DNA of 60,992 bases from Candidatus Vogelbacteria bacterium RIFOXYD1_FULL_51_18 (GCA_001823095.1 MHTL01000011.1:1-60992), one strand, 5' to 3'. Counted from the stretch's first letter, positions 7,470 through 45,572 are shown. A program made the numbers and translations. The notes: generated by a model from the letters alone, not told the origin.

Positions 7470-7594
7470 TCACCACTTCGGCGTGCGAAAATAAGTATAG
7501 TGAAATAATTGACGTCTGTCTATTATTGTAGTACGGTGGATGCGGCATACACCAGCAGCTGCTGGTTCTGATCTTTGTAATAAGGAGAACAAGT

Positions 7595-8350
7595 ATGGAC
7601 TTAACAGAAGCACGCAAGCGCATTATCGTAGCAGTGGATGTTCCCGATCTTGATAAGGCATGGGAAATCACAGACAAGTTGGACAGTACCGGAGTGCTCT
7701 TCAAAATCGGGCTTGAGCTCATTGTACCCTTTGGCATAGGGGAAATTCTCAATCGGTTGACAACCGACCAAATTGAGAATGATCGTTTCTTCATTGACGC
7801 TAAACTCTGCGACATCCCAAACACTGTCGGCGCCGCAGCACGGCAGATTGCCATGTGCGATGTGGGCATGTTTAACGTCCACGCAAGCGCGGGAGCGGAC
7901 GCAATGGCCGTGGCAGTGCAGAATCGCGGAGTCTCTAAGGTATTGGCCGTAACCATACTCACCTCGCTCTCAAACGAGCAGTGCAAGGAGATCTACGGCA
8001 ACGAGCCGAACGACGCGGTACTGCTCCTCGCCCTCTTAGCGCACACAGCGGGAGTGCAAGGGCTCATCTGCTCTCCCAAGGAGCTCACCATGCTCCATGA
8101 ACACCGTGTAGCAGAAGATATGCTCAAGATTACTCCCGGAGTCCGTCCCACATGGGCGGCGGCAAATGATCAAAAGCGAGTGATGACGCCCGCAGAGGCA
8201 ATCCGTGCGGGTGCAACGCACTTAGTCATTGGACGTCCTATTACCAAACCGCCAGAAAGTTTAGGCGGTGAGCTGTACGAGCGAATGGAAAAAGCGGTTG
8301 ATCTCATTGCTGCAGAAATCGCCGGAGCGCCTGCGGAGGTGGTGGCATGA
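7595..8350 (+). CDS. pyrF: Orotidine-5'-phosphate decarboxylase
   Basis: IIVAVD, FKIG, DAKLCDIPNTV (DxKxxD), NVHAS, ITPGVRP, DQKRVMTP, VIGRPIT. Confidence 0.97.
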   Translation: MDLTEARKRIIVAVDVPDLDKAWEITDKLDSTGVLFKIGLELIVPFGIGEILNRLTTDQIENDRFFIDAKLCDIPNTVGAAARQIAMCDVGMFNVHASAGADAMAVAVQNRGVSKVLAVTILTSLSNEQCKEIYGNEPNDAVLLLALLAHTAGVQGLICSPKELTMLHEHRVAEDMLKITPGVRPTWAAANDQKRVMTPAEAIRAGATHLVIGRPITKPPESLGGELYERMEKAVDLIAAEIAGAPAEVVA

Positions 8351-8466
8351 ATTAAAGCAAGGAGCATCAAAACCTGATCCGCATCCTACCACTCTTAGAA
8401 GCAGTTAAAGCTGCGCAGTATGGTCCGTTTCTCCCTCTGCACCATCGGCCCTGTCCGGCACTATAG
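8347..8466 (+). pseudogene. Decayed ORF translationally coupled to pyrF (possible pyrE 5' remnant)
   Basis: GGAGGT (8335-40) + 6 nt + ATG overlapping the pyrF TGA, stop at codon 3 (TAA), then open: SKEHQNLIRILPLLEAVKAAQYGPF. Confidence 0.4.
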
Positions 8467-8486
8467 TCAGGACGGGGGTTTTTTTT
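8449..8486 (+). terminator. Intrinsic terminator after pyrF unit
   Basis: CCCTGTCC...GGACGGGG followed by a T8 run. Confidence 0.7.
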
Positions 8487-8502
8487 GTGATAGAATATGC
8501 CT

Positions 8503-9402
8503 ATGAATCAGCGAGGATTTGGGCTCATGCCCGCCATCGGCGCTGTGAGTTTTGTGATCATCTTTGTCGCGGGCTATTTTGCGGTGCGCACGCTCTCCCC
8601 GGTGTCAGCAGTTCCTGCACCTCTTACAGAGCAGAGCACAACAACAAATACTGCCGCACTGCGCACAGCGGTCAGCGGCACCATTGACCCTCGCGATATT
8701 GAGAGCGTCTTATTTACCGTTGGCGCGGCGCCCTCGGTGCGCGTAACCGTTGATACACCGACTGCCGGAGTGGTGGTGAAGGTTACCGACCCCAAGGGAG
8801 GGACCTACTCTGCGATCGCTAATACCGGCAATGCCGACAGCAAGGAGGGAGAGCGCTACATCATAGAGCGCAAACCAGACGGCACATATCGCATTACCAT
8901 TATTGCTCCAGGCGGAACAACTCCCGGCGAGTATCGTGTAACTGTTGAGAATCCAAGCGGGAGTAGCCCGGCGCCTTATACGGTTGACATTCCCGATGCG
9001 CCGGTTGTTGTGACTGATACGCAGAATGTCGGCGGGAGCAGTGCAAACATAGAGGTTTCCATTACTGTAGGGGAGACTATTGCCCTCTCGGGTTTTGTGG
9101 CAATTGCAGACGCGCAAGTGATTGCCACTATCACTGCGCCCAGCGGGACCCAAACATCGCTTTTACTTGCCGAAGAGGAGGGGAGTCTGGGCACCTACAG
9201 CGGGACCTTTAACGGCGCCACGGAGAGCGGCACCTACAGTGTTGAATACGTTATTCAAGGTGAAAACTCCGCGGAAGACGAATTTTACAAAACTTCGTAC
9301 GACCAATTTACCGTCGCCGGCGGGACCGTAACCGGTTCAGGAGGGGTAAATAAAAAATTTGACATTAACCGCGGCGATGAGATACAACTCATTGGTTACT
9401 AG
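8503..9402 (+). CDS. Pilin-like (class III signal) surface protein with Ig-like beta domains
   Basis: MNQRGF-GLMPAIGAVSFVIIFVAGYFAV then Thr/Gly/Val-rich beta repeats; start 8503 or 8497. Confidence 0.75.
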   Translation: MNQRGFGLMPAIGAVSFVIIFVAGYFAVRTLSPVSAVPAPLTEQSTTTNTAALRTAVSGTIDPRDIESVLFTVGAAPSVRVTVDTPTAGVVVKVTDPKGGTYSAIANTGNADSKEGERYIIERKPDGTYRITIIAPGGTTPGEYRVTVENPSGSSPAPYTVDIPDAPVVVTDTQNVGGSSANIEVSITVGETIALSGFVAIADAQVIATITAPSGTQTSLLLAEEEGSLGTYSGTFNGATESGTYSVEYVIQGENSAEDEFYKTSYDQFTVAGGTVTGSGGVNKKFDINRGDEIQLIGY

Positions 9403-9436
9403 AGCAAGAGGCGTTTTTCCCGTATACTACATATAT

Positions 9437-9703
9437 ATGCCGACTAAATCATGGAAGAACTGGATACTCCTTGCGGCAGGGCTCGTAACGCTCATCATGC
9501 CCTATTTGGGATTCCCGCGCGGTGTTAAAGACTTTTTCTTTGTCCTTGCCGGCTTGGCAATACTCGCGATTGCCATCAATCTCCTCTGGCCATACACAGC
9601 TCCTGCGTCCGTACGTCATCCTAAAAAACCCCGCCCGCGCCGAGAGGCGGTGCCCGAGATTACGCCGCCGATAGAAACGCCTCATGAAGAGGAGGCTCAT
9701 TAA
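9437..9703 (+). CDS. Small two-helix membrane protein
   Basis: Two hydrophobic segments around YLGFPRGVKD; TATACT 8 nt upstream of ATG 9437. Confidence 0.75.
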   Translation: MPTKSWKNWILLAAGLVTLIMPYLGFPRGVKDFFFVLAGLAILAIAINLLWPYTAPASVRHPKKPRPRREAVPEITPPIETPHEEEAH

Positions 9704-10903: not shown

Positions 10904-10973
10904 TGCGCGTGCACGCTACACTTGGCGCATGGCAAAAGAACCTCTGGCAGCGCGGCTGCGGCCGAAAGGTGGC

Positions 10974-11002
10974 TTGACTTTGTATTGCAGGTTTGCTATA
11001 AT
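10974..11002 (+). promoter_or_regulatory. sigma70-type promoter for the 206-aa gene
   Basis: TTGACT-17 nt-TATAAT; leader has GATACCTTGAAAA (11010-22), a hairpin and AAGGAG. Confidence 0.8.
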
Positions 11003-11072
11003 GGTAAAAGATACCTTGAAAAGGCCCTAATTCGCGACGGCGAAGGGGTAAAAAACCAAGTAGAAGGAGCAG

Positions 11073-11693
11073 ATGATGAAAACCATCAGTCATGGTCAAA
11101 CCCGCGCTCTTGTTGGGTCGTTTCTCATTGATACGCCGTGGGACGACATCGAAGTCCCCGATGATGATGACTTTGTTCAATCTTTCATCCAACTTCGGCC
11201 AGAAGAACGCGGGAGAAAGTTTGCTGATTTCATCAGAGACAGGTTCCAGATTGTTTCCACTGCGGTTAAACATGCGGTTAAACACCTCATCAATCTCGAC
11301 ACCATCCCCTTCACCCCCAACGGCTGGAGTGTAGAGGAACACCAGGAGGGAGGAATGCTTGAGTGGAACTCCAACAAAGTCTCCCTCCACCTCTCTCCCA
11401 ACCAAGAAGGGAACATATACATTAAGGGCAACGAGCTCCGCACAGAGCTCAAGGGCAAACCTGTCTTGAATGCAAACGTTCTAGACTACCTCCTTATCCA
11501 CCAAGACCTCATCCCCGAGGAGTGGAAAGACCAGAGCATCTTCTTCTGGGGCACCATCTACTGCGGCCTGGACGGCACCCTGTTTGTCCGTTACCTCTAC
11601 TGGCACGGCGGCTGGTGGCACTGGGACTTCCTCTGGCTTGGCAGCGATTGGTTCTGCCACCGCCCGGCTCTCGTTCTCGCAAGTGGGCAATGA
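11073..11693 (+). CDS. Probable DGR-type variable protein (CLec-like C-terminus)
   Basis: C-terminus FWGTIY...LFVRYLYWHGGWWHWDFLWLGSDWFCHRPALVLAS; 11561-11680 has only 10 A in 120 nt and variable codons are NNC. Confidence 0.65.
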   Translation: MMKTISHGQTRALVGSFLIDTPWDDIEVPDDDDFVQSFIQLRPEERGRKFADFIRDRFQIVSTAVKHAVKHLINLDTIPFTPNGWSVEEHQEGGMLEWNSNKVSLHLSPNQEGNIYIKGNELRTELKGKPVLNANVLDYLLIHQDLIPEEWKDQSIFFWGTIYCGLDGTLFVRYLYWHGGWWHWDFLWLGSDWFCHRPALVLASGQ

Positions 11694-11872: not shown

Positions 11873-13618
11873 ATGGCCGACCTCCTTAAACAGGGTATGG
11901 CATATCTTGCCGAGACCGACTTTCGCGGCGCTAAGACGCGTTTTGGCATTAAAAACAGCGACCGCGCGCGGCATGTCTACGTCATCGGCAAGACCGGCAT
12001 GGGCAAGAGCACCTTGCTGGAGAACATGGCAATCCAAGATATGGCCAACGGCGAGGGGCTCGGCTTCATAGACCCTCACGGCGGCACTGCGGAAAAACTC
12101 TTGGATTACATCCCCGAGGAGCGCACCAAGGATGTGATTTACTTTGCCCCCTACGACCTTGACTACCCCATCTCCTTCAACGTGATGGAGGACGTGGGCA
12201 AGGACCAGCGCTACCTTGTGGCAAACGGGCTGATGTCCTCGTTCAAAAAAATCTGGCCCGACGTATGGAGCGCGCGCATGGAGTACATCCTCAACAACAC
12301 TCTCCTCGCGCTCCTTGAATACCCCGACTCAACCCTCCTCGGCGTCAATCGCATGTTGAGCGACAAAAATTATCGCACACAGGTAGTCAATAATATTTCA
12401 GACCCATCTGTGAAGGCTTTTTGGCTAGATGAGTTTGCTAAGTATAACGAGCGCTACATGCAGGAAGCGGGCGACGCGATTAAAAACAAAATCGGTCAGT
12501 TCACCAGTAATCCCCTCATCAGAAATATTATTGGCCAGCCCAAGTCCAGCTTTGACATCCGCGAGGTGATGGACGGGAAGAAGATTCTCATCATGAACCT
12601 CTCCAAGGGCCGCGTGGGCGAGCAGAACGCCTTTCTCCTCGGCGGCATGCTCATCACCAAGATTTATCTCGCCGCCATGAGCCGCGCCAATGCTACGACG
12701 GCGACACTCCAAGCGCTTCCATCCTTCTACCTCTTTGTAGACGAGTTCCAGTCCTTCGTCAACGACTCTTTTGCCGACATCCTTGCCGAGGCGCGCAAAT
12801 ACAAGCTCAATCTCACCATCGCGCACCAATATATTGACCAGATGCCCGAGACGGTGCAGAGCGCGGTCTTTGGCAATGTGGGCACGACCATCGCCTTCCG
12901 CGTGGGTCCCTTTGATGCCGAGAAGCTGGAAAAGATTTTCAGCCCTAAGTTTACTGAAGAGGATCTCGTTAATCTCGGCTTTGCCCAGATTTACCTCACT
13001 CTTATGATAGATGGCGTAGGCTCGCCGTCCTTCTCTGCGACCACGCTTGCGCCGATAGAAAATGCCATGCAGGAGCTCCACGCGGGACTCAAAGAGCAAA
13101 TCATCGCTTCCTCTCGCGCGCAGTACGCGCATCCGCGCGAGGAGGTGGAGAAGGCGATTACCGAGTGGCACAAGGTGGCGCTCTCCTCAATAGAGAAGGC
13201 GGATAGAGCGGGAAGGGTCAATCCGCCGGCCGGCGGACAAGGGCCAAGTAAAAAGTATCATACAGGAAGTCGGACTTCGGGGGCGGCGGAAGTCCGACTT
13301 CCGTTCCAGAAGCGCGCGACTCTCATTAAGGAGGCGGCGCAGGACCGCACGCGAGAGCTCTCCCTAGAAGCGCTCGTTGCGGCGAAGAACAAGGAGACAG
13401 TGAAAGCAACGCCACAGGCAAAAGAAGATCTCAAGTCTTTTTTGCAAGACGTTATTAAGTCAGTCCCCAAAGAAAAGAAAGAAGAAGTGCCAAGTATCAA
13501 GGATCAAGCAGACCAGAGGTCGGACTTCAAGGGCGGCGGAAGTCCGACTTCTGATTCCCAAGAAATTCCAGAAGACGAGCTCCGGCATATGCTTGAGGTA
13601 CCTAAAAGAAACGGGTAG
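11873..13618 (+). CDS. VirD4/TraG/TrwB-like (T4CP/HerA superfamily) ATPase
   Basis: Walker A IGKTGMGKS, Walker B LFVDEFQ, EARKYKL, HQYIDQ; low-complexity C-terminal tail. Confidence 0.9.
   Translation: MADLLKQGMAYLAETDFRGAKTRFGIKNSDRARHVYVIGKTGMGKSTLLENMAIQDMANGEGLGFIDPHGGTAEKLLDYIPEERTKDVIYFAPYDLDYPISFNVMEDVGKDQRYLVANGLMSSFKKIWPDVWSARMEYILNNTLLALLEYPDSTLLGVNRMLSDKNYRTQVVNNISDPSVKAFWLDEFAKYNERYMQEAGDAIKNKIGQFTSNPLIRNIIGQPKSSFDIREVMDGKKILIMNLSKGRVGEQNAFLLGGMLITKIYLAAMSRANATTATLQALPSFYLFVDEFQSFVNDSFADILAEARKYKLNLTIAHQYIDQMPETVQSAVFGNVGTTIAFRVGPFDAEKLEKIFSPKFTEEDLVNLGFAQIYLTLMIDGVGSPSFSATTLAPIENAMQELHAGLKEQIIASSRAQYAHPREEVEKAITEWHKVALSSIEKADRAGRVNPPAGGQGPSKKYHTGSRTSGAAEVRLPFQKRATLIKEAAQDRTRELSLEALVAAKNKETVKATPQAKEDLKSFLQDVIKSVPKEKKEEVPSIKDQADQRSDFKGGGSPTSDSQEIPEDELRHMLEVPKRNG
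13265..13302. repeat. GGAAGT-family palindrome inside the ATPase CDS (copy 1)
   Basis: GGAAGTCGGACTTC-10 nt-GAAGTCCGACTTCC, read as GSRTSGAAEVRLP. Confidence 0.85.
13514..13553. repeat. GGAAGT-family palindrome inside the ATPase CDS (copy 2, different frame)
   Basis: CAGAGGTCGGACTTC-10 nt-GAAGTCCGACTTCTG, read as QRSDFKGGGSPTS. Confidence 0.85.
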
Positions 13619-13627
13619 AGTGCCTGT

Positions 13628-14755
13628 ATGAGAGAGTTCCGCACGGCGCTAATTTATACCACTGCCTATCTGCCCTATATTGGCGGAGCGGAGTTGGCGC
13701 TCAAAGAGATTACCGAGCGTTGGCACAATGTGCGGGTGCTTATCGTAACGGCGCGGCTCTCGCGCACAGTGCCGCAAAGGGAGCGCATCGGCCGCGCCGA
13801 AGTCATCCGCATTGGCATCGGCATCCCACGCGTTGACAAGCTCCTCCTTGCAGTATTCGGCAAGAGGGCGGGAGAGAGGGCGCTCAAAGGGAGCGAACCA
13901 GACTGCGTATGGGCAATCATGGCAAGCTATGGCGCGCTCGCCGCGCTTGCCTACAAACGCGCGCACCCGCGTGTGTCCTTCATACTCACCTTGCAGGAAG
14001 GGGATACGCATGAGCACATTGCGCGCCGAGCGCGCTTCCTCGGCAAGCGCTTTAGAGAAATTTTTGAGCGCGCTGACGCTATTCAGGCAATTTCGCAATA
14101 CCTTGCGGACTGGGCGCGCGATATGGGCGCGACGGCTCCAATCACAGTTATCCCTAATGGAGTAGATATAGAGAAATTCAGATTTCGAAGTTGGAAGTCG
14201 GATTCGCCACAGGCGAATCCGACTTCCAAGAGTATAGAACTCATTACCACGTCTCGGCTGGTGAAGAAGAATGCAGTAGACGACATTATCCGCGCGCTCG
14301 CGCACTTGCCGGAGACAGTAACACTTGAGGTCGTAGGGGACGGAGTAGAACGAAATAATTTGAAAGTACTCACACTCTCTCTCAACCTTTCTTCCCGTGT
14401 TCATTTTGCTGGCGCTATTGCTCCTGAAGAAATTCCCTTAGCGCTCGCCCGTGCGGATATTTTTGTTCGCCCCTCACTCTCTGAAGGTTTAGGAAATTCT
14501 TTTTTGGAAGCGTTTGCCGCGGGTCTCCCCGTGATTGCCACACCTGTTGGTGGTATCCCTGATTTTCTCCGTGATGGCGAAACGGGCTGGTTTGCCGAGG
14601 TGAGGAACCCCGAGTCCATTGCCGCCTGCGTGCGCTATATTATTAATCCTGCACACGAGGAGCATGTGACACACGTTACTGCTGCCGCACGAGCACTTAT
14701 TGAGAAAGATTATACATGGGAATCTGTTATGGTGCGGATGGGAGCTATCCTGTAA
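13628..14755 (+). CDS. GT4 glycosyltransferase
   Basis: AYLPYIGGAE, IPNGVD, TTSRLVKKN, FVRPSLSEGLGNSFLEAFAAGLPVIAT. Confidence 0.95.
   Translation: MREFRTALIYTTAYLPYIGGAELALKEITERWHNVRVLIVTARLSRTVPQRERIGRAEVIRIGIGIPRVDKLLLAVFGKRAGERALKGSEPDCVWAIMASYGALAALAYKRAHPRVSFILTLQEGDTHEHIARRARFLGKRFREIFERADAIQAISQYLADWARDMGATAPITVIPNGVDIEKFRFRSWKSDSPQANPTSKSIELITTSRLVKKNAVDDIIRALAHLPETVTLEVVGDGVERNNLKVLTLSLNLSSRVHFAGAIAPEEIPLALARADIFVRPSLSEGLGNSFLEAFAAGLPVIATPVGGIPDFLRDGETGWFAEVRNPESIAACVRYIINPAHEEHVTHVTAAARALIEKDYTWESVMVRMGAIL
14191..14229. repeat. 39-bp GGAAGT-family palindrome in-frame in the GT4 interdomain linker
   Basis: TTGGAAGTCGGATTCGCC-ACA-GGCGAATCCGACTTCCAA (perfect 18-bp stem; 39 nt, a multiple of 3). 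Confidence 0.9.
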
Positions 14756-14761
14756 AACTAT

Positions 14762-15856
14762 ATGACAGGAGAAAATCGTCCACATATTGCGATCATCGGA
14801 GGAGGATTCTTTGGAGCTACCGTCGCTTATGTTCTCGCGGAAGCGGGGTATCCGGTCACCCTGTTTGAGAAACACGATGATTTACTTCAGGCCGCATCAG
14901 GAATTAATCAATTCCGTCTCCATCGTGGGTACCATTATCCACGAAGTGCTGAAACTGCGCGAGAGTGTGCTGAAGCAGAACAAATCTTTTTAGAAGAATT
15001 TCCCGGACTTGTCTCGTTTGAGAACGATCATTACTATTGTATTGCGCGTGAAGGAAGCAAGATTTCTCCTGAGGATTTTCGTGCTTTTTGCGATGCGGTT
15101 GGTCTTGAGTATGAGGAGGCACACTCCCCTGTGGTTAATCGGGAAGAGATACTCTGGAGCGTTAAGGTACGTGAAGGACTCGTCCGTATTGATGCGGCAC
15201 GTTGCTATCTACGAGAGCGTTTAGAACATTTAGGAGTTGCTCTTCGTTTCAATACGCTAGCGACGGAAGAACTTCTTCGCCCGTTTTCAAAAGTAGTGGT
15301 ATGTACTTATGCATCAAACAACCAGGTGCTTCGTACGTTATTACACGACGAGCATATTCAAGAGTATCAGTACGAACTGTGTGAAAAGATCGTGTTGGAA
15401 CTTCCCACGGAGTTTCAGCATCAGAGTGTTGTTATTATGGACGGGCCTTTTATGTGTGTTGACCCCTTTTGTGACACTCCCTACCATCTGATGGGGAATG
15501 TAGTACACGCAATCCACAGATCCTCTGTAGGCGCGTATCCAGAAATTCCCACTCACCTTGCCCAATTCATTAATAGGGGATTAGTAAACAAACCGCCGCA
15601 CTCTAATTTTCGGCACTTTATTAAATCAGCATCACAGTATTTTCCTCACGTGTACGCCGCACGTCATGTGGGTTCTATGTATACCATTCGTACGGTGCTC
15701 CCCAATCTTGATCACTCCGATGCTCGCCCGACGATTGTTGAGCCCTTAAGTGAGCGTGTGATCCGTGTGTTCTCTGGCAAGATTGGTAACTGTGTACTTG
15801 CGGCATGGCAGGTGCGAAGACTCATTACTAAGTCTGAGGGAAAGCATCCGCAATAA
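14762..15856 (+). CDS. FAD-dependent oxidoreductase
   Basis: IAIIGGGFFG...FEK; ASGINQFRLHRGYHYPRS; FSGKI near C-terminus. Confidence 0.9.
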   Translation: MTGENRPHIAIIGGGFFGATVAYVLAEAGYPVTLFEKHDDLLQAASGINQFRLHRGYHYPRSAETARECAEAEQIFLEEFPGLVSFENDHYYCIAREGSKISPEDFRAFCDAVGLEYEEAHSPVVNREEILWSVKVREGLVRIDAARCYLRERLEHLGVALRFNTLATEELLRPFSKVVVCTYASNNQVLRTLLHDEHIQEYQYELCEKIVLELPTEFQHQSVVIMDGPFMCVDPFCDTPYHLMGNVVHAIHRSSVGAYPEIPTHLAQFINRGLVNKPPHSNFRHFIKSASQYFPHVYAARHVGSMYTIRTVLPNLDHSDARPTIVEPLSERVIRVFSGKIGNCVLAAWQVRRLITKSEGKHPQ

Positions 15857-19315: not shown

Positions 19316-20352
19316 AGCTTCTTTTTATTACACAGGTATGGGATGAGAATGATAGCGTCTTGGGGTTTGTCCCCTCATGGGTAGAAGCATTTCGTCCAGT
19401 TTCTACATCACTTTCTGTCATAGCTCTCCGCGTCTCATCAAGCGAGCATCTCAATGGTATCCCCGTCCATTCTCTAGGGAAAGAGGAGGGGAGAGGACAT
19501 ACGCGGAAAATTTTCCGATTTTATCAGTTACTGTTGGATCTTCGTAATTCTTATGACACGGTGTTTGTCCACATGAATCCAGAGTATGTGGTACTCGCGG
19601 GATTTTTGTGGCGACTTATGGGAAAAAAAGTAGTGCTTTGGTACGCGCATGGCATTGTTACATGGAAGCTCCATGCCGCGACGCCTTTCTGTTCGCGTAT
19701 TCTGACCTCAACACCAGAAGGATGTCGCATCAGTTCAAAGAAGCTTCGCGTTATTGGACAAGCCATTGATACCGAACTCTTTAGTCCGGCATCTCACGTT
19801 CCCCTTATTCCAAAACTTTTTGTTGTGGGAAGAATAGCTGAGATCAAGAGCCAAGCGCTTGCAGTACGCGCACTCGCGCTTATTCATAAAGAATATCCAG
19901 AGGCAACGCTCGAAATTATTGGAGCGCCTGTGTACGACGCTGATCGTATCTACGAATCTTCTGTGCGAGAACTCTCTCGTGAGCTTGGTGTTGAATCATT
20001 CGTGCGCTGGTGTGGTCCGCTCACGCGCATAGAACTTGCTCGTGAATTACCGCATGCATCTTTGTGCATCAATATGAGCACTAACGGGAGTCTTGATAAG
20101 GCAGGGCTTGAGGCGCTTGCCGCAGGGGTGCCTGTTATTACCGCTAATCCCGCATTTCGTTCAATCCTTATGGGTGTCGCTGACATACTCTTCATGTCCT
20201 CTCAAGAGAGTAGCGATGTTTCCCGCGCTATTCTCTTATATTTAACACTTCCGTCTGAAGAGCGTGAACATATCCGTAGGACACTTCGGGAACGAGCTGT
20301 CGCGGAGCATAGCATTACAACATTTGCTGAACGGGTAGTATCTACACTATGA
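19312..20352 (+). CDS. GT4 glycosyltransferase
   Basis: MKLLFITQ, VHMNPEY, VGRIAEIK, GSLDKAGLEALAAGVP. Confidence 0.92.
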   Translation: MKLLFITQVWDENDSVLGFVPSWVEAFRPVSTSLSVIALRVSSSEHLNGIPVHSLGKEEGRGHTRKIFRFYQLLLDLRNSYDTVFVHMNPEYVVLAGFLWRLMGKKVVLWYAHGIVTWKLHAATPFCSRILTSTPEGCRISSKKLRVIGQAIDTELFSPASHVPLIPKLFVVGRIAEIKSQALAVRALALIHKEYPEATLEIIGAPVYDADRIYESSVRELSRELGVESFVRWCGPLTRIELARELPHASLCINMSTNGSLDKAGLEALAAGVPVITANPAFRSILMGVADILFMSSQESSDVSRAILLYLTLPSEEREHIRRTLRERAVAEHSITTFAERVVSTL

Positions 20353-26662: not shown

Positions 26663-27190
26663 TTAGAGAATTGCCGCTGATTCCCGATCTCCCTTAAACC
26701 ACTTTTGGAAATAGGCAAGGTACCGAGGAACATTCTGCGGGATGACGTCCGGGGGATTTTCCGTAAACCACTTGAGGTCGTCCCGCTCTGTCACCTCGCT
26801 AGTCGCTCTGCAGGCGATGATTAGTGAGATGGGATATCCAAAGGGATGTTCCCTGTGGAGCCATGTGTGAGTGCCAATGAGTTCAAGACTAGAAACTCCA
26901 TCGGCGATCCCTTCCTTGCGAACATGGTAGTCACAGGCATCTTGGTAACTCTGGCCTGGCTTCATGTATCCGCCCGGGATATGCCACCCCTTGAAGTCAT
27001 CATCCCGATGGCTCAGGAGAAATCTTCCTCCATCATCATAGATGAGGACCTCAACCGCAGGCCACGGCACAAGCTTGTGTATGAACCGGTACGCAGAATC
27101 CGGGATAAACCCCTTATCCTGCTCAACCACGACTGCTAGCAGATGTCCCAATTCCGCCTGTTCTTCAGGCGAAAGTGATGAACTCGGCAT
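26663..27190 (-). CDS. NUDIX hydrolase (GDP-mannose mannosyl hydrolase-like)
   Basis: VPWPAVEVLI, WHIPGG.MKPGQSY; GGGAGG SD and TTGACA/TATACT promoter. Confidence 0.8.
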   Translation of the reverse strand: MPSSSLSPEEQAELGHLLAVVVEQDKGFIPDSAYRFIHKLVPWPAVEVLIYDDGGRFLLSHRDDDFKGWHIPGGYMKPGQSYQDACDYHVRKEGIADGVSSLELIGTHTWLHREHPFGYPISLIIACRATSEVTERDDLKWFTENPPDVIPQNVPRYLAYFQKWFKGDRESAAIL

Positions 27191-27295
27191 TGTCTAATCC
27201 TCCCTTTCCTCAAGTTTCTATCTGTGTTCAGTATACACGAACTACAGATTTTGTCAATAGCGACAGGGACGCATAAGGCAGGCTACAATCAGGAT

Positions 27296-29615: not shown

Positions 29616-31298
29616 CTACATATCGAGAATCCGTTCAATCTGACCTGTGTCGACGTGTTCTCGCGCTTGCAAGAAGACATCATCAGGCATCTCACCAAAG
29701 TTAAGCGGTGCGCCGTCGCTACCATGCATTACCTTGGTTGCATCATCGAGCTCTAAAATGTAAGCGCGGAGCGCTTCGTTAGCAACTGGCTCACCATCCA
29801 CATGGAAACTGATACCGAAGTTGTAACTAAGCAGTTGTTTGCAGGCTACATCCTTGAACATTGCTGTACCCGGATAAGCAGTGGCGACAAACATCTTCCG
29901 ATTGACCGCCTCTTTGGCTACTAGTTCTTCTTGCCAGAGGATGAAGGCCACGCTGGTCTGAAGGTCACGAAGCGTCTCGCCTGGATAACCCATAATCCAG
30001 GTACAGTTGGCGTGGATACCAACTCTCTGGCAGTTCTGAATGCCCTGTACCATGGTGGTGGGAAAATCAAAACCATTGAGTCGAGTCAAGTCATTCTTCT
30101 GGGCGCCTCGCGGTCGAAGAATGAAGCCACCCTTATTCATTCGTTCAAGGACATTGGGACTAGCACTTTCGGCACCGAAACCGATGTAGATACAGCCAGC
30201 TTCGGCCATCCAGTCGGCTCGTTCATCAGCCGCCTCATCCAGACGAGTGTGCGTGCCCCAGCGCAAACCACCCAAAGGCTCAAAAGCATCAGGTAAGGCC
30301 TTGATACGACGGGGGTCAACGGCGAAGTTGTCGTCATTGAAGCCCAGGAAGTCAATCCGGTAGGTCTCCATCAACCACAGTGCTTCTTGGACAATGTTGC
30401 CCGGCGAGTGCATACCATATAACCGCTCGCCTTGGGCACCGCGATAACAAAAAGCACAAGCATAAGGGCAACCACGACTAGAGACTCTGGTCAGACTTCG
30501 GTTCATCTGGAAGGAGGTGGCCGAACTGTTGTTAGCCTCCAGGCCCCAGACCGGCACTTTAATATACCATTCCATGATCGGGTTGCCATCAACATCTTGG
30601 TGGAGTAGATCCCATGCGGCAAAAGGCAATCTATCAAGACCTCTTGGTCGGTCACCGGCATAAAGGAAACGGGTCCGACCACCAATCTTGCCCAAACACT
30701 CATGGAGATGAGACATACCTCGCCGTTGGTGTCGCTTCGCCTCGAGGACGTCTTTGGCTAAGATCGGTAAGATATCATCGCCTTCAGAGTGGGCAACGCA
30801 ATCAAGCTCGGGCAACCACTCGAACAGTCCGCCCTTGATCTCGGTGGCAAGGCCCCCACCAGAGATGATAAAAGCGTCCGGCACCAATTGGCGACAAATG
30901 GCAGTCGCCCATTCTTGCCAACGGAGTGTGGTAATCATTCCCGACAGGGCGATGATGTCTGGCTCGCCATGCCGGTGGAAGTGACGAGTCAAGAGACCCT
31001 CGGCTTCTTTGGGTGTAAGGTGACGGCCGTGTGCTTTGCCAGCTAAGTGGGCGGTCTCGTCTTTGATTCGGTAAGCGTTCAGGTCAACAATGCTCACTTC
31101 GGCGCCAAATTGGCGCAGACGAGCGGCCAACAGCCCTGGCCCTTGCGGTGGTGTGTTAGGGGTCGCCGATTCGCGTAGTGGCATATTGATAAAGACAACC
31201 GTCAATCCCTCCAAATCGCGATATGTCATTTCTTGGACGAGTTCTGCCGGATGGAGAACCCTTGTTCGTGTGGGGATTTGTACAGGGGCCTCTGTCAT
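29616..31298 (-). CDS. B12-binding radical SAM protein
   Basis: SRGCPYACAFC (CxxxCxxC), DDNF, GAESAS, MGYPGET; N-terminal cobalamin-binding Rossmoid domain; AAGGAGG SD. Confidence 0.92.
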   Translation of the reverse strand: MTEAPVQIPTRTRVLHPAELVQEMTYRDLEGLTVVFINMPLRESATPNTPPQGPGLLAARLRQFGAEVSIVDLNAYRIKDETAHLAGKAHGRHLTPKEAEGLLTRHFHRHGEPDIIALSGMITTLRWQEWATAICRQLVPDAFIISGGGLATEIKGGLFEWLPELDCVAHSEGDDILPILAKDVLEAKRHQRRGMSHLHECLGKIGGRTRFLYAGDRPRGLDRLPFAAWDLLHQDVDGNPIMEWYIKVPVWGLEANNSSATSFQMNRSLTRVSSRGCPYACAFCYRGAQGERLYGMHSPGNIVQEALWLMETYRIDFLGFNDDNFAVDPRRIKALPDAFEPLGGLRWGTHTRLDEAADERADWMAEAGCIYIGFGAESASPNVLERMNKGGFILRPRGAQKNDLTRLNGFDFPTTMVQGIQNCQRVGIHANCTWIMGYPGETLRDLQTSVAFILWQEELVAKEAVNRKMFVATAYPGTAMFKDVACKQLLSYNFGISFHVDGEPVANEALRAYILELDDATKVMHGSDGAPLNFGEMPDDVFLQAREHVDTGQIERILDM

Positions 31299-31446
31299 AA
31301 GAGCTCCTCCTTTTCTTTTCTGTATCAGATTTAGTATGGATTCTCAAAGAACCACTCTTGAGGTAGTATGCATTATCTTTTAATTTTAGCAAGAGGCACT
31401 CTCTGAACTTATTGACCAGAAAGATGAAGAGTGCTATTGTTCTTTT

Positions 31447-34002: not shown

Positions 34003-34101
34003 TTGACAGAAGATTTGGGGTATGCTACAATAGAACACAGATAGAAACCCGAGGTAGTGCCTCGTAAAAAAGAACCTTGAAGTAGAAAGGAGTAAAGAGT
34101 A

Positions 34102-34710
34102 ATGACCGATGTTCATGAAGAGGTGCAGTTGCTAGCTCAAAAAATCAAGGCAGTCATCTTTGATGTTGATGGAGTCGTATTCCCCGCGGAGGTAACCGAA
34201 GGGTGGTACGACGCGGAGGGTAAACCTATTCGCGTAAAAACGCGGAGTTACACGGATGGTCAAGGCGTCTCCTTGCTCCGTGCAATCCATTTGCCCGTTG
34301 CCTTCATTACAAACGAGCATGGTGACCATGCGCGTGCAATCTCTGGAGTCGTTGAGAAGTGGAACACCCTCCCCTCCTCTACAAAAGCTCCTGGGGATGG
34401 AGGGTGGCCGTCTGTCCACCTTTACACTGGTATGGGTGGGGAGAAAAAGGTGGTCGCCGCCAAACAATTTCTGCAAAAGGTTGGTCTTAGATCGCTCCAA
34501 GATTGTGCAATGATGGGAGATGATCTCGTTGATGTACCTCTACTACGTCTCGTCTCCCTTCGTGCAGCACCAGCTCAGGCAGAAGACGTGGTAAAAAACT
34601 TGTGCCATTTTGTTGCTAAGCGAGATGGTGGTAAGGGAGCAATTCGTGACCTAGCTAACTTTATTCTTGATGCACGGGGTATAGACCCAACAACATTGCC
34701 CCCAAACTAA
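34102..34710 (+). CDS. KdsC-like HAD phosphatase, paralogue 1
   Basis: FDVDGV, DGQG, EKK, MGDDLVD, GGKGAIRD. Confidence 0.9.
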   Translation: MTDVHEEVQLLAQKIKAVIFDVDGVVFPAEVTEGWYDAEGKPIRVKTRSYTDGQGVSLLRAIHLPVAFITNEHGDHARAISGVVEKWNTLPSSTKAPGDGGWPSVHLYTGMGGEKKVVAAKQFLQKVGLRSLQDCAMMGDDLVDVPLLRLVSLRAAPAQAEDVVKNLCHFVAKRDGGKGAIRDLANFILDARGIDPTTLPPN

Positions 34711-34752: not shown

Positions 34753-34940
34753 CTAATACCCCAAGAGGCATTTAACTTTGTCGTACTGTGGGGGTTTATT
34801 AGGTATGACATATCCCTGATCTTAACCCCTCAAGTGTTGTGAAGCCCATGAGACATTACGTACGGTTGACGGCGGAAAAACCGTATGGTAGATTAACGGT
34901 TGCTGTTTGAAAAACAAGACTCTAAAGGAGGAAAAGAAAA

Positions 34941-35522
34941 GTGGACCGATTACTCGTTGATCTTGCTAAAGATGTTAAGGCTATTGCGTTTGACTTTGAT
35001 GGTGTGTTCACAGACAACAGGGAACTGCTCGGATTCCCTGAGGGGGTGGTTGTTAAAGAGAGGAGCCATTATGATGGCCAAGGAGTTTCTTTACTCCGAG
35101 ACATTGGCATCTATATTGCTCTGGTCACTAATCAAAAAGAAAAGAGCGCTGAACCTGCTCACTTTCTTGTGAAGAAATGGAATGCGTTGCCCTCGGCCCA
35201 GCCCTTCGTAATAAATCCTTGGCATCCCGTTACTTTGTTTACCGGGGTAGGTCATGTTAAGAAGGCAGAAGCTGTGGGTGCATGGTTGGAGGAACTTCAC
35301 TTGTGTCCAGGGGACTGCGCTGCGATGGGGGATGATATTGTTGATGTACCCCTCTTGCAGTTTGTTAGCCTTCGAGCTGCTCCCTGTACGGCCGAAAAAG
35401 TTGTGCGAGATATGGTGCACTATCTGAGCGAGCGTCCTGCTGGGTATGGTGCTGTGCGTGATTTTGCTAATCTCATTCTTGAGTCTCGTGGTATTGATCC
35501 ACGCACCCTTCGCCCATTCTAG
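34941..35522 (+). CDS. KdsC-like HAD phosphatase, paralogue 2
   Basis: FDFDGV, DGQG, MGDDIVD, GYGAVRD; GTG start after AAGGAGG. Confidence 0.9.
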   Translation: MDRLLVDLAKDVKAIAFDFDGVFTDNRELLGFPEGVVVKERSHYDGQGVSLLRDIGIYIALVTNQKEKSAEPAHFLVKKWNALPSAQPFVINPWHPVTLFTGVGHVKKAEAVGAWLEELHLCPGDCAAMGDDIVDVPLLQFVSLRAAPCTAEKVVRDMVHYLSERPAGYGAVRDFANLILESRGIDPRTLRPF

Positions 35523-36113: not shown

Positions 36114-36229
36114 AAGATGCCCTTAGCATACCCCATTTGAGACTTAAAATAAAGGTATTGCAAAGTCAAGAAATATATGCTATAAACTCTTTAGCGAGAT
36201 CTTTTCCAAAAAACTGAAAGGAGCAATGT

Positions 36230-36766
36230 ATGAACATTACCGATATCTCTGTAGAAAGATGGCTACAGATCAGGCTTTTTGTCCTTGATTTTGATGGCAT
36301 CCTCAATGACGGATATGTCTATATCTGCGAGACAGGGTTAGAGACTAACCGTTTTAGCCACTTGGACGGTAAGGGTGTTGATCATCTCTTAGCGGCCGGC
36401 ATCATTGTTCACGTTCTCTCGGGTCAGGTAAACAAGATTGTGGAGACACGATGCACCAAGCTTAAAATCAGCTGGGATTCTGGCCGAACGCTCAAGAGCG
36501 CTGAAGGCAAGCTGGCGGGGTTTGAACAAATCCTCCTTCGCCACGGCCTACAGTCCGACGAGAGCCTGTACATGGGTGATGACGTGAATGACCTCCTAGT
36601 ACTTCAGCGTGCGGGTATTGGCATCACCGTGCCCAATGGGCATCCTCTGGTGCTACAGAAATGTCCGTTGGTTACCGTGGCTCGTGGCGGACACGGGGCG
36701 GTCCGTGAAGTGGTGGACTATCTCTTGCATCTGCAAGACATTAATCGAAGAAAGGAGGAGGAATGA
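36230..36766 (+). CDS. KdsC-like HAD phosphatase, paralogue 4
   Basis: LDFDGILND, LDGKG, GKL, YMGDDVND, GGHGAVRE. Confidence 0.93.
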   Translation: MNITDISVERWLQIRLFVLDFDGILNDGYVYICETGLETNRFSHLDGKGVDHLLAAGIIVHVLSGQVNKIVETRCTKLKISWDSGRTLKSAEGKLAGFEQILLRHGLQSDESLYMGDDVNDLLVLQRAGIGITVPNGHPLVLQKCPLVTVARGGHGAVREVVDYLLHLQDINRRKEEE

Positions 36767-40287: not shown

Positions 40288-40317
40288 TACAAAATATAGT
40301 GGAGGTAAAATCAACAT

Positions 40318-41247
40318 TCATAAAAACAACCCCCGCAAACTCTTTTTAACAAACTCTAAGGTTCTTTGATCCCAGAAGGTAAAGGCAATGCAATAGAGCA
40401 CAATGCCGGTGATTTTGTATACGTCAATACTTTCACTAAACAGAAGCGCTCCCGCAATCATCACGGTTGAGAGGTGGATACCGTTCATAACGAGTTTTTT
40501 TAGTGCGATCGTCGCACCGCTCCGATAGCTCATCACGTTAAATATCCACAAACCAACATTGATAACCCCAATGAGGAGAGAGAAGCCGATAAAATATGTG
40601 GTGAGACTCTCTGTTTTTAAAAGAGTGGGATTGATGAGATACAGAAGGGGGAGTGTTGCTATTCCAGCAATGAATTGCGTGCCTCCACCCCAAAAGTTCT
40701 TTACCATAGGGTCTATATCTTGGATGAACTGTGTTACACCCTGATTGATTGCAATGCCCAGCATCATTATAAATGAGAGCCATACCCATAGGGGGAAGTT
40801 CATGACCTCACTAATAGATGGCGCTCCAAGCACCGCATATCCAGCAAGGACGGCGATTGCTACCGCAATCCATTGACGACTCTTCAAGTGATGGTGAAAG
40901 AATATGCTGTCAATGATACCGCCAGGGATGATCGCAAGAGTGGTAATGAGAGTATTCACCCCCACATCCCCGCCATATGTAAATGTCAGGAAGCCAAGCA
41001 CGATGACGCAGTATCCGACTAGCCCGAACGCACAAGCTCCGATAATTTCCCTTCGTGATACGAGCAGGGACTTGCCACACTGTATAGTAACAGCCAATCC
41101 GAGTACTGCCTGAACTACTCCCACAATCATAGACGCAAGCACTGCATCAACAAACTTAACGCTCACGATGCCCGTGAGCTTGAGTAGAACTTTCGTTACT
41201 GTCCTCGTGAGAGCCTCAGCGATGGTCCATCCTATCCATAACTTCAT
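40318..41247 (-). CDS. EamA/DMT-family transporter-like membrane protein
   Basis: About 10 TM helices in two repeats; AAGGAG SD. Confidence 0.75.
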   Translation of the reverse strand: MKLWIGWTIAEALTRTVTKVLLKLTGIVSVKFVDAVLASMIVGVVQAVLGLAVTIQCGKSLLVSRREIIGACAFGLVGYCVIVLGFLTFTYGGDVGVNTLITTLAIIPGGIIDSIFFHHHLKSRQWIAVAIAVLAGYAVLGAPSISEVMNFPLWVWLSFIMMLGIAINQGVTQFIQDIDPMVKNFWGGGTQFIAGIATLPLLYLINPTLLKTESLTTYFIGFSLLIGVINVGLWIFNVMSYRSGATIALKKLVMNGIHLSTVMIAGALLFSESIDVYKITGIVLYCIAFTFWDQRTLEFVKKSLRGLFL

Positions 41248-41367
41248 TTCGGTTTCTCCTTAGTCATTATAATGTTCCATCTACATAAAACATAACATAA
41301 GAAGTAAAGAACACAAGGATTGTTCCAATTGGTATTTTTTGATGTATTAGTGCTATAGTAGAGTCCT

Positions 41368-43342: not shown

Positions 43343-43457
43343 GTAGCGCTTATTGTATCTCACAATGCCTACCCAACTCAAGCAATTGACAAACCTTTGT
43401 TTATATAGTAGTGTTGGAAACGGAAAAATCATTGAAAAAATAAAGAAAGGAGAACCC

Positions 43458-44390
43458 ATGAACTCAACAGCGTTGATGTTGGTACTGGGTTTTTGCGTAA
43501 CTGAAGCTCTCTACAATGTCTGTATTACTCAGGTGACGAAACAAAAACCCCAGTTAAAAAAGAGGATCATGACGCTTGCTGGCTTGGTTGGCCTCGTCGC
43601 GACAGTATTACTGTTTCTTGTTGCTTTTATAACTGGTGGCATGGAAGTGACCGAAGGTTGGTGGAAGCCGGTACTTATCACTGGGGTTCTGGCTGGAGGA
43701 GTACTATTCGCCGAGTTTAAAGCGTTTTCTCTTGAAGATGCTTCACTTGTAGCGCCAATCTCCTCGACTACGCCAGCGCTTGTTATTGTGACAAGCTTCA
43801 TTATCCTTGGTGAATATCCCAGTTCAGCTGGATGGGTTGGTATTCAGTTTATTGTTCTGGGTACCTATCTTCTCAACATACAAACCCACCTTAGACGATG
43901 CCGGGAAGCCGGCACGCGGATAACTTGGAAAGATTGGTTAGCTCCATTCATTATGTTGGCCAAAAGCAAGGGAGTTCGTTACGCCTACCTTTGTGTCCTG
44001 TTTGCGATCTTCAGTCTCAACTATGAGGCATTAGCGGTACGCAAAGCAAATGTCGCCTTTGCTTCGGCTTGCATCTTCGGCATTGCATCTCTTCTTAATC
44101 TTGCTGTTGCTTCGTATGTGGAAGGGAAAATTACTACTCGCGAGGTGATATTTCTAAGACAGCCTCTCGTGTTAGTAATCGCAACCTGTCTTTTTCTTGG
44201 GATCTTTCTGTCTAATTCAGCGTTTCGTTATGACATTGTTCCTTATGTGGGCACACTTAAAAGACTACAAATCCCACTGACTATCCTTTTCGCGTGGTAT
44301 TTCCTCGGAGAGCGAGAGAATTTTAAAGGACGATTGTTTGGAGGATCTCTCATGGCGGTAGGCGCGATTTTCATTGCTCTTGGTGGATGA
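43458..44390 (+). CDS. EamA/DMT-family transporter
   Basis: DASLVAPI...P...ILGE; YVGTLKRL...FLGER; AAGGAG SD. Confidence 0.85.
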   Translation: MNSTALMLVLGFCVTEALYNVCITQVTKQKPQLKKRIMTLAGLVGLVATVLLFLVAFITGGMEVTEGWWKPVLITGVLAGGVLFAEFKAFSLEDASLVAPISSTTPALVIVTSFIILGEYPSSAGWVGIQFIVLGTYLLNIQTHLRRCREAGTRITWKDWLAPFIMLAKSKGVRYAYLCVLFAIFSLNYEALAVRKANVAFASACIFGIASLLNLAVASYVEGKITTREVIFLRQPLVLVIATCLFLGIFLSNSAFRYDIVPYVGTLKRLQIPLTILFAWYFLGERENFKGRLFGGSLMAVGAIFIALGG

Positions 44391-44419
44391 TAATTTACTT
44401 ATTCCCATCTGAGTATGGT

Positions 44420-44452
44420 AAAAGCGACAACTCTACAGTTGTCGCTTTTTTT
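44420..44452. terminator. Bidirectional terminator
   Basis: AAAAGCGACAAC/GTTGTCGCTTTT. Confidence 0.8.
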
Positions 44453-44462
44453 GTATAAAAAA

Positions 44463-44487
44463 CCGGTGGATCCACTGGATCCACCGG
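44463..44487. repeat. 25-bp palindrome with 1-nt centre
   Basis: CCGGTGGATCCA-C-TGGATCCACCGG. Confidence 0.75.
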
Positions 44488-44493
44488 CAAATA

Positions 44494-45492
44494 TCACACG
44501 ACAGAAAGAGTGCGACGCACACGCCGTAATTTTTCAATTATAGCTTGCTCGTCCGGATAAATACTGATCTCACCATTTCCCTGTGCTATATAGAGTTCTC
44601 TAACTGCCCGACACAAGCGTATCAGGTCTCCTGGCTCGGAAGAGAGCGCTTGATCAGATCCAAACATGCCCCGCTCTTGCGTGATATGTTTCTCAATCAT
44701 ACATGCTCCCATGGCAGCTGCGGCGAAGGTGGGCATAATTCCCGTATCATGGCTGGAGAAGCCGATGGGCACCCCAAACTCATTACGGAGACGGGCCATA
44801 CCTTTTAGATTGACACAGCGGAGCACCTCTTCCGGCGTCCCGGTGCCTGTTGGGTAGATACTGGTGCAATGGAGAATAACGAGATTCTCTGTTCCGAGTA
44901 CCTCCACAACAGCGCGGACCCCGTCCATGTCGGTCATGCCGGTAGAGAGGATGAGCGGTTTGCCGGTTGCCCGTAGGCGGAGCATCAGTTCGTCATCCTC
45001 GTTGCAGGGTGACGCGATTTTGTGGGCGGGCGGATTGAATTGTTCAATAAAATCCACCGACTCGCAGTCCCAACATGAGGCAAACCATGCAATCCGCTTC
45101 TCTTTGCAATACGCATCAATCTCGGCATACTCGTCTTCAGTGAACTCAAGTGCGTACTTGAGATCACCGTTGCGGGTATCGGTAAAATCCGATTGCATCA
45201 GCCGTTGCACAGATTCTGGAGGGAGTACGCCTCGCTTTATCGCGTTCTCCAAAACATGTTTTCCTTTTCGCATCTCTCGCGGGCGACCCAGCTCTTGTTG
45301 GTTGTATACCACAGAGATGGTGCGTTTTTGGAATTTAACCGCATCGCATCCAGCAAAGGCCGCTACATCAATGAGCCTCTTTGCCATGGCCAGATCCCCA
45401 TTATGGTTGATGCCGATTTCCGCGACGATGTACGCGTCTTCTCCCGGGCCGACGAGGCGATTGCCAATGGCGACCGCGCCTTGTATAGACAT
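44494..45492 (-). CDS. neuB: N-acetylneuraminate synthase family (no C-terminal SAF domain)
   Basis: AEIGINHNG, DAVKFQ, KIAS, LSTGM, HCTSIYP, GFSSHD, IEKHIT, DQ; ends just after KLRR. Confidence 0.93.
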   Translation of the reverse strand: MSIQGAVAIGNRLVGPGEDAYIVAEIGINHNGDLAMAKRLIDVAAFAGCDAVKFQKRTISVVYNQQELGRPREMRKGKHVLENAIKRGVLPPESVQRLMQSDFTDTRNGDLKYALEFTEDEYAEIDAYCKEKRIAWFASCWDCESVDFIEQFNPPAHKIASPCNEDDELMLRLRATGKPLILSTGMTDMDGVRAVVEVLGTENLVILHCTSIYPTGTGTPEEVLRCVNLKGMARLRNEFGVPIGFSSHDTGIMPTFAAAAMGACMIEKHITQERGMFGSDQALSSEPGDLIRLCRAVRELYIAQGNGEISIYPDEQAIIEKLRRVRRTLSVV

Positions 45493-45572
45493 GGAGAGAC
45501 TCCTTTCTGAAGGTTTTTACTTGGCAAGGAACATGCTTTTGCCTTCCGCGATAGTACTACTAGGAAAAATAA

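Follow-up and report, generated by a model that had tools for sequence, protein, structure and literature searches.

The window analysed here is a 60,992-nucleotide stretch of DNA from a Candidatus Vogelbacteria-like member of the Paceibacteria, ultra-small bacteria of the candidate phyla radiation, and the element under study is a boxA-type sequence in the untranslated leaders of a minority of its genes. The window opens inside a 16S ribosomal RNA (rRNA) gene with large insertions; of 119 related loci compared, the best-matching ones belong to Vogelbacteria and Paceibacteria genomes (82–89% identity). Between 27 and 50 kb lies a biosynthesis cluster for a nonulosonic-acid-type sugar, composed of NeuB, a CMP-transferase, four KdsC-like phosphatases, an aminotransferase, methyltransferases, a B12-radical SAM protein, a flippase, two EamA transporters and one insertion sequence. 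An Rfam scan of the window returned no family besides rRNA and transfer RNA (tRNA).

Two Classes of Gene Start

Shine–Dalgarno (SD) sequences of the form AAGGAG, AGGAGG or GGGAGG are located 5–10 nucleotides (nt) 5′ of 11 start codons in the window. Ten of these SD-led starts possess a promoter of their own, the remaining one being the operon-internal AAA33. The units are as follows:

7509–7597 (+): pyrF unit; promoter TTGACG-17-TACGGT, 57-nt leader, SD AAGGAG at 7582–7587, ATG at 7595
10974–11075 (+): g11073 unit; promoter TTGACT-17-TATAAT, 70-nt leader, SD at 11063–11069, ATG at 11073
27190–27257 (−): NUDIX unit; promoter TTGACA-16-TATACT, 39-nt leader, SD GGGAGG at 27199–27204, ATG at 27190
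31298–31392 (−): radical SAM (rSAM) unit; promoter TTGCTA-17-ATACTA, leader of ~65 nt, SD at 31304–31313, ATG at 31298
34003–34104 (+): KdsC1 unit; promoter TTGACA-17-TACAAT, 70-nt leader, SD at 34086–34092, ATG at 34102
34866–34943 (+): KdsC2 unit; promoter TTGACG-17-TAGATT, 46-nt leader, SD at 34924–34931, GTG at 34941
36158–36232 (+): KdsC4 unit, which includes AAA33; promoter TTGCAA-17-TATAAA, 43-nt leader, SD at 36217–36223, ATG at 36230
36763: start of AAA33, operon-internal
41247–41274 (−): EamA1 unit; TATAAT, 18-nt leader, TAAGGAG, start at 41247; SD-led without boxA
43386–43460 (+): EamA2 unit; promoter TTGACA-17-TAGTGT, 43-nt leader, SD at 43446–43452, ATG at 43458
45492–45578 (−): neuB unit; promoter TTGCAT-16-TACTAT, 58-nt leader, SD at 45500–45506, ATG at 45492

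A preliminary description of this DNA had proposed a stand-alone, SD-led class of genes beside a leaderless one, and the division proves real, with ten units that combine a promoter and an AAGGAG-type site. The promoter and leader features attributed to the class apply to most of its members: seven of the ten promoters fit TTGnnn-16/17-TAnnnT, with rSAM and KdsC4 as near-fits, and nine of the ten promoter-proximal units have leaders of 39–70 nt, that of EamA1 being shorter. Most of the remaining genes, even within apparent operons, carry TANNNT 6–11 nt before the start codon and no SD. Examples among operon-internal-looking genes, with TANNNT 6–10 nt ahead of the start, are found at 13600–13630, 14745–14765, 20330–20350 and 51850–51870. 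Because genes that look operon-internal carry a −10-like box so close to the start and lack an SD, the sequence suggests that many of them have a leaderless promoter of their own.

The SD-led units had also been regarded as an expression mode for accessory genes, and this part of the preliminary description is too simple. pyrF is a housekeeping gene, and SD-led genes are not compositionally foreign, with a GC content at third codon positions (GC3) of 0.52 against 0.49 (P = 0.21) over the whole window and no difference in overall GC content either; the idea that the class consists of foreign genes was rejected on these figures. Within the sugar cluster (27000–50000) the mean GC content of SD-led genes is 0.498 against 0.457 for their leaderless neighbours (Mann–Whitney P = 0.004), so that they look less foreign than those neighbours, not more.

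A BoxA-Type Element in the Leaders

De novo searches failed to yield boxA, and for this reason the leaders, which total about 500 nt, were scored with a seeded matrix and with a published consensus. The matrix spans 15 nt, has the consensus WGTWCNTTGAMAAYT and was refined on about 100 rRNA operon (rrn) leaders of Paceibacteria relatives, the window being excluded; the consensus is the Bacillus subtilis rrn boxA core (GAUCUUUGAAA or GATCTTTGAAA). Sites of at least 9.4 bits were considered strong. The boxes and associated hairpins are listed below, with matrix scores in bits and the probability of the score in shuffled leaders (shuffle P).

7551–7566 (+): pyrF hairpin, a 16-nt perfect palindrome directly 5′ of the box, in a boxB-like position
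7569–7583 (+): pyrF boxA, TGATCTTTGTAATAA, 11.7 bits, shuffle P = 0.002; two-base overlap with the SD
11010–11024 (+): g11073 weak boxA-like site, GATACCTTGAAAAGG, 5.4 bits, shuffle P = 0.02; 7 nt after the −10 box
27205–27219 (−): NUDIX degenerate boxA-like site, AGAAACTTGAGGAAA, −2.1 bits
31339–31353 (−): rSAM boxA, GGTTCTTTGAGAATC, 13.8 bits; second-best match in the whole window
34050–34064 (+): KdsC1 hairpin, CGAGG-TAGTG-CCTCG, 5′ of the KdsC1 box
34071–34085 (+): KdsC1 weak boxA-like site, AGAACCTTGAAGTAG, 4.3 bits, shuffle P = 0.04; abuts the SD
34901–34915 (+): KdsC2 boxA, TGCTGTTTGAAAAAC, 10.3 bits; 6 nt after the −10 box, two mismatches to the B. subtilis core
36197–36211 (+): KdsC4 weak boxA-like site, uncertain, AGATCTTTTCCAAAA, 5.25 bits, shuffle P = 0.11
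43426–43440 (+): EamA2 boxA, AAATCATTGAAAAAA, 11.5 bits, shuffle P = 0.0015
45519–45533 (−): neuB boxA, TGTTCCTTGCCAAGT, 9.4 bits, shuffle P = 0.0075

All eleven sequence strings quoted in the preliminary description, the two hairpins included, are present position for position. Of the ten leaders, five (rSAM, pyrF, EamA2, KdsC2 and neuB) contain a strong site on the sense strand; the sites of g11073, KdsC4 and KdsC1 are weak, that of NUDIX is degenerate, and EamA1 has none. Antisense scores of the leaders are low. When leaders were shuffled, four reaching 9.4 bits were observed against 0.12 expected, and none of 2000 shuffles reached four; this test took the rSAM leader shortened at its second CATACT, and the rSAM site, known from the scan of the whole window, is the fifth. 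That scan, covering both strands (122 kb), gave 27 matches of at least 9.4 bits against 15 ± 4 after block shuffling, with about 0.06 expected in leaders. The B. subtilis core is matched with at most two mismatches in four of the ten leaders, against 0.07–0.11 expected (0 of 5000 shuffles), the pyrF box differing from it at a single position. By both external priors, with expectations of about 0.1, the motif is enriched over background. BoxA-like strings are likewise found inside coding regions, at 22755–22769 (−; 14.7 bits), 54792–54806 (+; 13.5 bits) and 14356–14370 (−; 12.0 bits).

All boxes are in the sense orientation, 6–39 nt and usually 6–17 nt downstream of the predicted −10 box. The distance from the end of the box to the start codon is 11 nt in pyrF, 14 in NUDIX, 16 in KdsC1, 17 in EamA2 and 18 in KdsC4, rising to 25 in KdsC2, 26 in neuB, 40 in rSAM and 48 in g11073. 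The box abuts or overlaps the SD in pyrF, KdsC1 and NUDIX; spacing may be short enough for occlusion in some units, not in others. The NUDIX and KdsC1 leaders are further related in that the first 16 nt after the −10 box, GAACACAGATAGAAAC, are identical in the two (27214–27229 on the minus strand and 34033–34048 on the plus strand) and are followed by nnGAGG.

It could be argued that A/T-rich leaders, together with selection by eye, have produced the motif by chance. A de novo k-mer test was not significant, several sites are weak, and high-scoring matches in coding regions occur at about the chance rate (three of at least 13.5 bits in the whole window, against 1.5). The two external priors, however, give 4–5 leader matches where about 0.1 is expected, and in five gene families orthologs keep the box in their leaders (described below); a chance origin is already largely refuted and appears very improbable.

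Outside the window, 26 kb of the genome contain one further gene with promoter, leader and SD, and this gene has a hairpin followed by TGGACTTTGACTGAA. Just beyond the window as well, a repeated hairpin-like sequence, CCTCCCCCTTACTTATCC...CAGGGGAGGGGAAGAAG, precedes three small toxin–antitoxin or methyltransferase genes (L217, 5860–7700, minus strand).

The rrn Leader and the 16S rRNA Gene

The preliminary description had assigned the motif to the boxA type, and comparison with the rrn leader of the same genome bears this out. The leader was obtained from four sister assemblies (L120–L123), 99.8–99.99% identical to the window, which were found through the window's C5-methyltransferase and which reach 7.6 kb upstream of it. 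In all four it reads TTGACT-16-TATAAT-gcatgggcg-CACCTTGACAACT, with the boxA CGCACCTTGACAACT positioned 9 nt after the rrn TATAAT and scoring 12.3 bits. The CCTTGA form of this box recurs in the g11073, KdsC1 and neuB leaders. As the organism's own rrn leader carries the same box, the motif of the mRNA leaders is not unlike the rrn boxA but alike.

The type is general in the lineage. Scanning genome contigs with a lineage-specific 16S word yielded 119 Paceibacteria rrn loci, of which 110 leaders were compared. In these the promoter is followed by a box such as AGTCCTTTGACAATC, AGTTCATTGAAAACT or AGAACCTTGAAAATT, the last being the rrn boxA of relative L082, and a hairpin usually stands between promoter and box. 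The matrix box WGTWCNTTGAMAAYT is present between promoter and 16S gene in 100 of the 110 leaders, and 59 of them contain a sequence that departs from the B. subtilis core at no more than two positions, where shuffles give 12.7. In B. subtilis the rrn boxA, AUGAUCUUUGAAA, follows a small 5′ hairpin, and its binding by NusB has been demonstrated by nuclear magnetic resonance (PMC13753749). A short Gibbs sampler and a k-mer count run on the 110 leaders missed boxA and for the most part picked up the promoter and a TTTTCTTTTGTTCCGTT box.

Two further explanations of the element are confronted by the rrn leaders. Under the first, the TTGA(C/A)A core would be the −35 hexamer of a second, internal promoter, as TTGACA and TTGAAA resemble the −35 consensus of this genome. 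By inspection no leader, rrn leaders included, shows TANNNT 16–18 nt past the core, and conservation extends 6 nt upstream of the TTG; cores that have no −10 partner rule out a second promoter, and the idea, scarcely credible, was set aside. Under the second, the box would act in cis only as an anti-SD mimic, its CUUU or CCUU core pairing with the AAAGG of the SD and hiding the ribosome-binding site, with no Nus factor involved. Such pairing is seen in the minimum-free-energy folds of pyrF, KdsC1 and KdsC4 and is absent from those of g11073, rSAM, KdsC2, EamA2 and neuB. With three of nine folds showing it, systematic pairing between box and SD was rejected; moreover, the conserved G2, C5 and GA(A/C)AA fall outside any SD complement, and rrn leaders carry the same box without having an SD. 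A mimic of this kind is accordingly held to be improbable.

The 16S gene itself departs from the usual form at the anti-SD. Its 3′ tail (window 1664–1682) is GGAATTCTTCCGAA, with CUUCC in place of the usual CCUCC. CCUCC is wholly missing from 47 of 48 related Paceibacteria 16S tails, which are of the GGAAUAAUUCAA or GGAUUUAUUUCAA type, while CUUCC is seen in this organism only. AAGGAG-type sequences are still observed ahead of some genes in relatives without CCUCC, for example L072. 3′ of the 16S gene (window 1678–1990) there is a terminator-like GC stem with a T-run at about 1845–1860, after which come a separate TTGTCA-17-TATAGT promoter, a tRNA-Ile and a restriction–modification system; no 23S gene follows, so the rRNA genes are unlinked.

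Several other features surround the rrn leader. A strongly conserved box, TTTTCTTYTGTTCCGTTY, lies 20–60 nt before the 16S gene (L001–L119), with TGTTCCGT in 71 of 110 leaders; the version in this organism is CTCTCTTGTTCCATTCTCC (L120, 7393–7412), and it may represent a processing stem or an element of the boxC kind. A perfect direct repeat of 154 nt occupies L120 7203–7356 and 7483–7636, one copy in the rrn leader and the other, which ends at window position 27, as an insertion in the 16S 5′ domain (helix 6 region). The repeat is identical in four assemblies from different samples, and three contigs, that of the window included, break inside or just before it. A tRNA-like segment is located about 40 nt before the rrn promoter (L120, 7039–7088), scoring 25 bits with Rfam (cut-off 29) and giving no call with ARAGORN.

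Conservation in Orthologous Leaders

For rSAM, a metagenome scan returned 80 loci. The orthologs L126–L133 (65–97% identity) retain GGTTCTTTGAGAAYC or a close variant 7–16 nt after the −10 box, between flanks that have diverged, and among 34 distinct near orthologs 10 have a box of at least 9.4 bits, against 1.3 in shuffles. Distant orthologs carry TTTCACA or TTGTCA variants, both of which also occur among rrn boxes. In pyrF, the orthologs L206 and L207 (60% and 56% protein identity) keep the TTGAC promoter, the hairpin, the box TGATCTTTG(T/A) and the SD, and the hairpin, ACCAGCAGCTGCTGGT in the window and ATCAGCGTGGCTGAT in the orthologs, shows a compensatory change.

g11073 (11073–11693) is a member of a large family of target proteins of diversity-generating retroelements (DGR), whose relatives in L208, L211 and L213 have adjacent bAvd and reverse transcriptase genes. 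In the window no reverse transcriptase or Avd gene adjoins g11073, and a type IV coupling-protein-like gene comes next. All four distinct leaders of DGR-target homologs have a boxA-like box 4–15 nt after the −10 box (AGTACCTTGAATTTC, AGTTCTTTGTTATGT, TGTTCTTTACAATCT and AGCTCTTTTAAATAT).

The sugar cluster was compared with the syntenic clusters of three relatives (L219, L220 and L221). Boxes of genes other than rSAM are:

EamA, L219: TGAACATTGTCAATT, 13.7 bits
NUDIX, L221, in the same place as in the window, divergent from GMD: TGTCATTTGAAAACT, 14.5 bits
Hydrolase_3, L219: GGTTCTTTAAC
Unnamed gene of 239 amino acids, L219: AGAACCTTGAAAAGGAG, 9.1 bits

The sequence AGAACCTTGAAAAGGAG of this L219 leader, like the rrn boxA AGAACCTTGAAAATT of L082, is among the evidence for the weak KdsC1 box. 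The rSAM box scores 11.1 bits in L219 and 13.8 bits in L221; in L220 it is a weak variant (−0.4 bits) with no clear SD, and the NeuB and Hydrolase_3 leaders of L220 have an SD with a weak box or none. Across these clusters rSAM, EamA, NUDIX, Hydrolase_3 and the unnamed gene are preceded by a promoter, a boxA-like box and an SD, and AP_endo2, SDR, AKR, GMD and ABC2 by a −10 box just before the start and no SD. As the same families are leadered or leaderless from one cluster to another, the mode of expression is largely conserved by gene family there. By these comparisons of sequence, the box is conserved under selection in the leaders of rSAM, pyrF, the DGR-target family, EamA and NUDIX.

Conservation and enrichment establish function, not the identity of the reader, and the element could be recognised by something other than NusB and ribosomal protein S10 (NusB–S10): a DNA-binding regulator just past the promoter that co-regulates rRNA and these genes, another RNA-binding protein, or an RNase for which it is a processing site. 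Many boxes are close enough to the promoter, at no more than about 25 nt, for a repressor to form a roadblock there. Against this, the motif matches the near-universal bacterial boxA, which binds NusB in Escherichia coli and B. subtilis (PMC13753749), every site is strand-specific, and the distance from the −10 box ranges over 6–39 nt, sometimes with an intervening hairpin that shows compensatory change. Variable distance and a covarying hairpin are more in keeping with an element read as RNA than with a DNA operator at a fixed place, and a different reader is unlikely.

Proposed Mode of Action

The reading favoured here, and judged reasonably likely, is that the shared leader motif is a genuine boxA, as in the organism's own 16S leader, which would load NusB–S10 on leadered mRNAs. 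It is the most economical one given that the motif is strand-specific, lies at 6–39 nt from the −10 box, follows a covarying hairpin in some leaders and has no −10 partner of its own. Since the boxA of the organism's own rrn leader stands on these leaders and is kept by relatives on the same genes, transcription factors of the rRNA type probably act on the leadered mRNAs as well. The analysis shows identity of type with the rrn boxA, enrichment, strand specificity and conservation among orthologs; the start sites of transcription, the binding of NusB–S10 and its outcome are predictions from sequence. With respect to the preliminary description, its observation is confirmed and its interpretation partly supported.

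Under the proposed scheme, most mRNAs would begin with the start codon itself or a few bases ahead of it, and a minority would be transcribed from a sigma-70-type promoter with an untranslated leader of 40–70 nt that ends in AAGGAG and mostly contains a sense boxA. The box would begin within about the first 25 nt of the RNA, after a small hairpin in pyrF and KdsC1. NusB and S10 (NusE) would bind the nascent boxA and, with NusG and NusA, modify RNA polymerase as on pre-rRNA. The modified polymerase could then keep transcription of the untranslated leader from ending early, for as long as no ribosome has loaded at the SD. In pyrF, KdsC1 and NUDIX, whose boxes touch or overlap the SD, NusB–S10 binding could compete with the 30S subunit, which would couple expression to the free pool of NusB and S10, as in E. 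coli suhB.

A number of results weigh against this scheme. The k-mer maximum statistic, applied de novo to nine leaders and compared with dinucleotide shuffles, gave P values of 0.1–0.7 with A-rich words dominating, so that from the window alone the shared motif is not separable from an A-rich background. The matrix was seeded by eye from rrn leaders, a weakness mitigated by the test with the published consensus. Three sites (g11073, KdsC4 and KdsC1) reach just 4–5 bits, NUDIX scores −2.1 bits, and EamA1 has no site. The sequence surrounding the rrn operons of 119 diverse Paceibacteria, 762 kb in all, showed no enrichment of the box before SD-led open reading frames (7 against about 3), and 4 of 322 box matches preceded such frames, against 1.5% for permuted matrices; this lack of general enrichment limits the association to certain gene families and does not extend it to every SD-led gene. 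In six metatranscriptome runs none of the window's sequence was present. As to the factors themselves, a nusG gene is present in one relative, and a tblastn search of 1.37 Mb of collected loci with E. coli NusB gave no match and is uninformative.

A bolder version of the scheme may also be considered, in which Paceibacteria have come to use boxA and NusB–S10 not just on rRNA but also, as a separate channel of expression, on a conserved set of mRNAs with leaders. The factors would dock on the first 10–25 nt, read or process the 5′ end, and hand the leader via S10 to the small subunit, partly replacing SD/anti-SD pairing in the selection of mRNAs. The setting for it is a lineage almost universally without a CCUCC anti-SD and with mostly leaderless mRNAs; as an account of the element it is speculative and rather unlikely to be correct.

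Gene regulation in bacteria of the candidate phyla radiation is almost unstudied, and the result provides a concrete, testable cis-element conserved across species, together with a probable trans-factor, NusB–S10, for a set of genes that covers surface-sugar synthesis, transporters, a DGR-diversified protein and pyrF. The lineage concerned initiates translation in an unusual way, its mRNAs being leaderless and its anti-SD weak or missing. Expression mode as a trait of gene families, as found in the syntenic clusters examined, should help the prediction of gene starts and operons in these genomes.

Comparison with Known Systems

The closest relative of the element is the rrn leader boxA (E. coli UGCUCUUUAACA; B. 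subtilis AUGAUCUUUGAAA), which loads NusB–NusE(S10) and nucleates the antitermination complex. The boxes described here share its sequence type, its strand and its place past the promoter, in some cases with a small hairpin ahead of them, and that of pyrF is one position off the B. subtilis core. Unlike the rrn boxes, they head protein-coding units and their leaders end in an SD. The nut sites of phage lambda (boxA and the boxB hairpin) also place a linear box by a short hairpin, as in pyrF (7551–7583) and KdsC1 (34050–34085), but here the hairpin comes first, as in rrn leaders, and neither an N protein nor a phage context is present.

BoxA on mRNAs is known from the gamma-proteobacteria, where it is present in the 5′ untranslated regions of suhB, rpsJ and a ParE-like toxin gene (Baniulyte et al. 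2017, PMC5725501). Genomes of that group have 0–7 mRNA BoxA sites, mostly at translation-related and Nus genes, and the control has experimental precedent, suhB being translationally repressed through a BoxA by the SD (PMC5725501). BoxA ahead of CRISPR arrays is also cited (PMC13753749). As in the gamma-proteobacterial mRNAs, the boxes here are of the rrn type and within tens of nucleotides of the start codon, and in pyrF, KdsC1 and NUDIX they abut the SD in the geometry that gives translational repression in suhB. They differ in number, the 61 kb containing 5 strong and 3–4 weaker sites, most of them within the cluster for sugar biosynthesis, and in setting, as they occupy the very 5′ end of the predicted RNA and the genome is leaderless-dominated, with CUUCC in its 16S tail. 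This suggests that the Nus factors, long viewed as dedicated to rRNA, have a much larger mRNA regulon here than 0–7 sites per genome. The preliminary description had thought the arrangement undescribed, which agrees with a literature search that found nothing on boxA, anti-SD or leaderless mRNAs in Patescibacteria, but does not apply to mRNA boxA as such, given its occurrence in gamma-proteobacteria. What is new is the density of the sites, their 5′-end position, and a gene-family-specific leadered class in a leaderless-dominated genome of an anti-SD-poor lineage.

Genomes that mix leaderless and SD-led genes are found in the Actinobacteria and Deinococcus-Thermus, and correspond to the "leaderless plus SD" class of gene-start models; their SD-led genes are mostly operon-internal. 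The present genome resembles them in having a −10 box 6–11 nt before many starts and an SD-led minority. It differs in that its operon-internal genes are mostly without an SD, whereas the SD-led genes are promoter-proximal and furnished with boxA.

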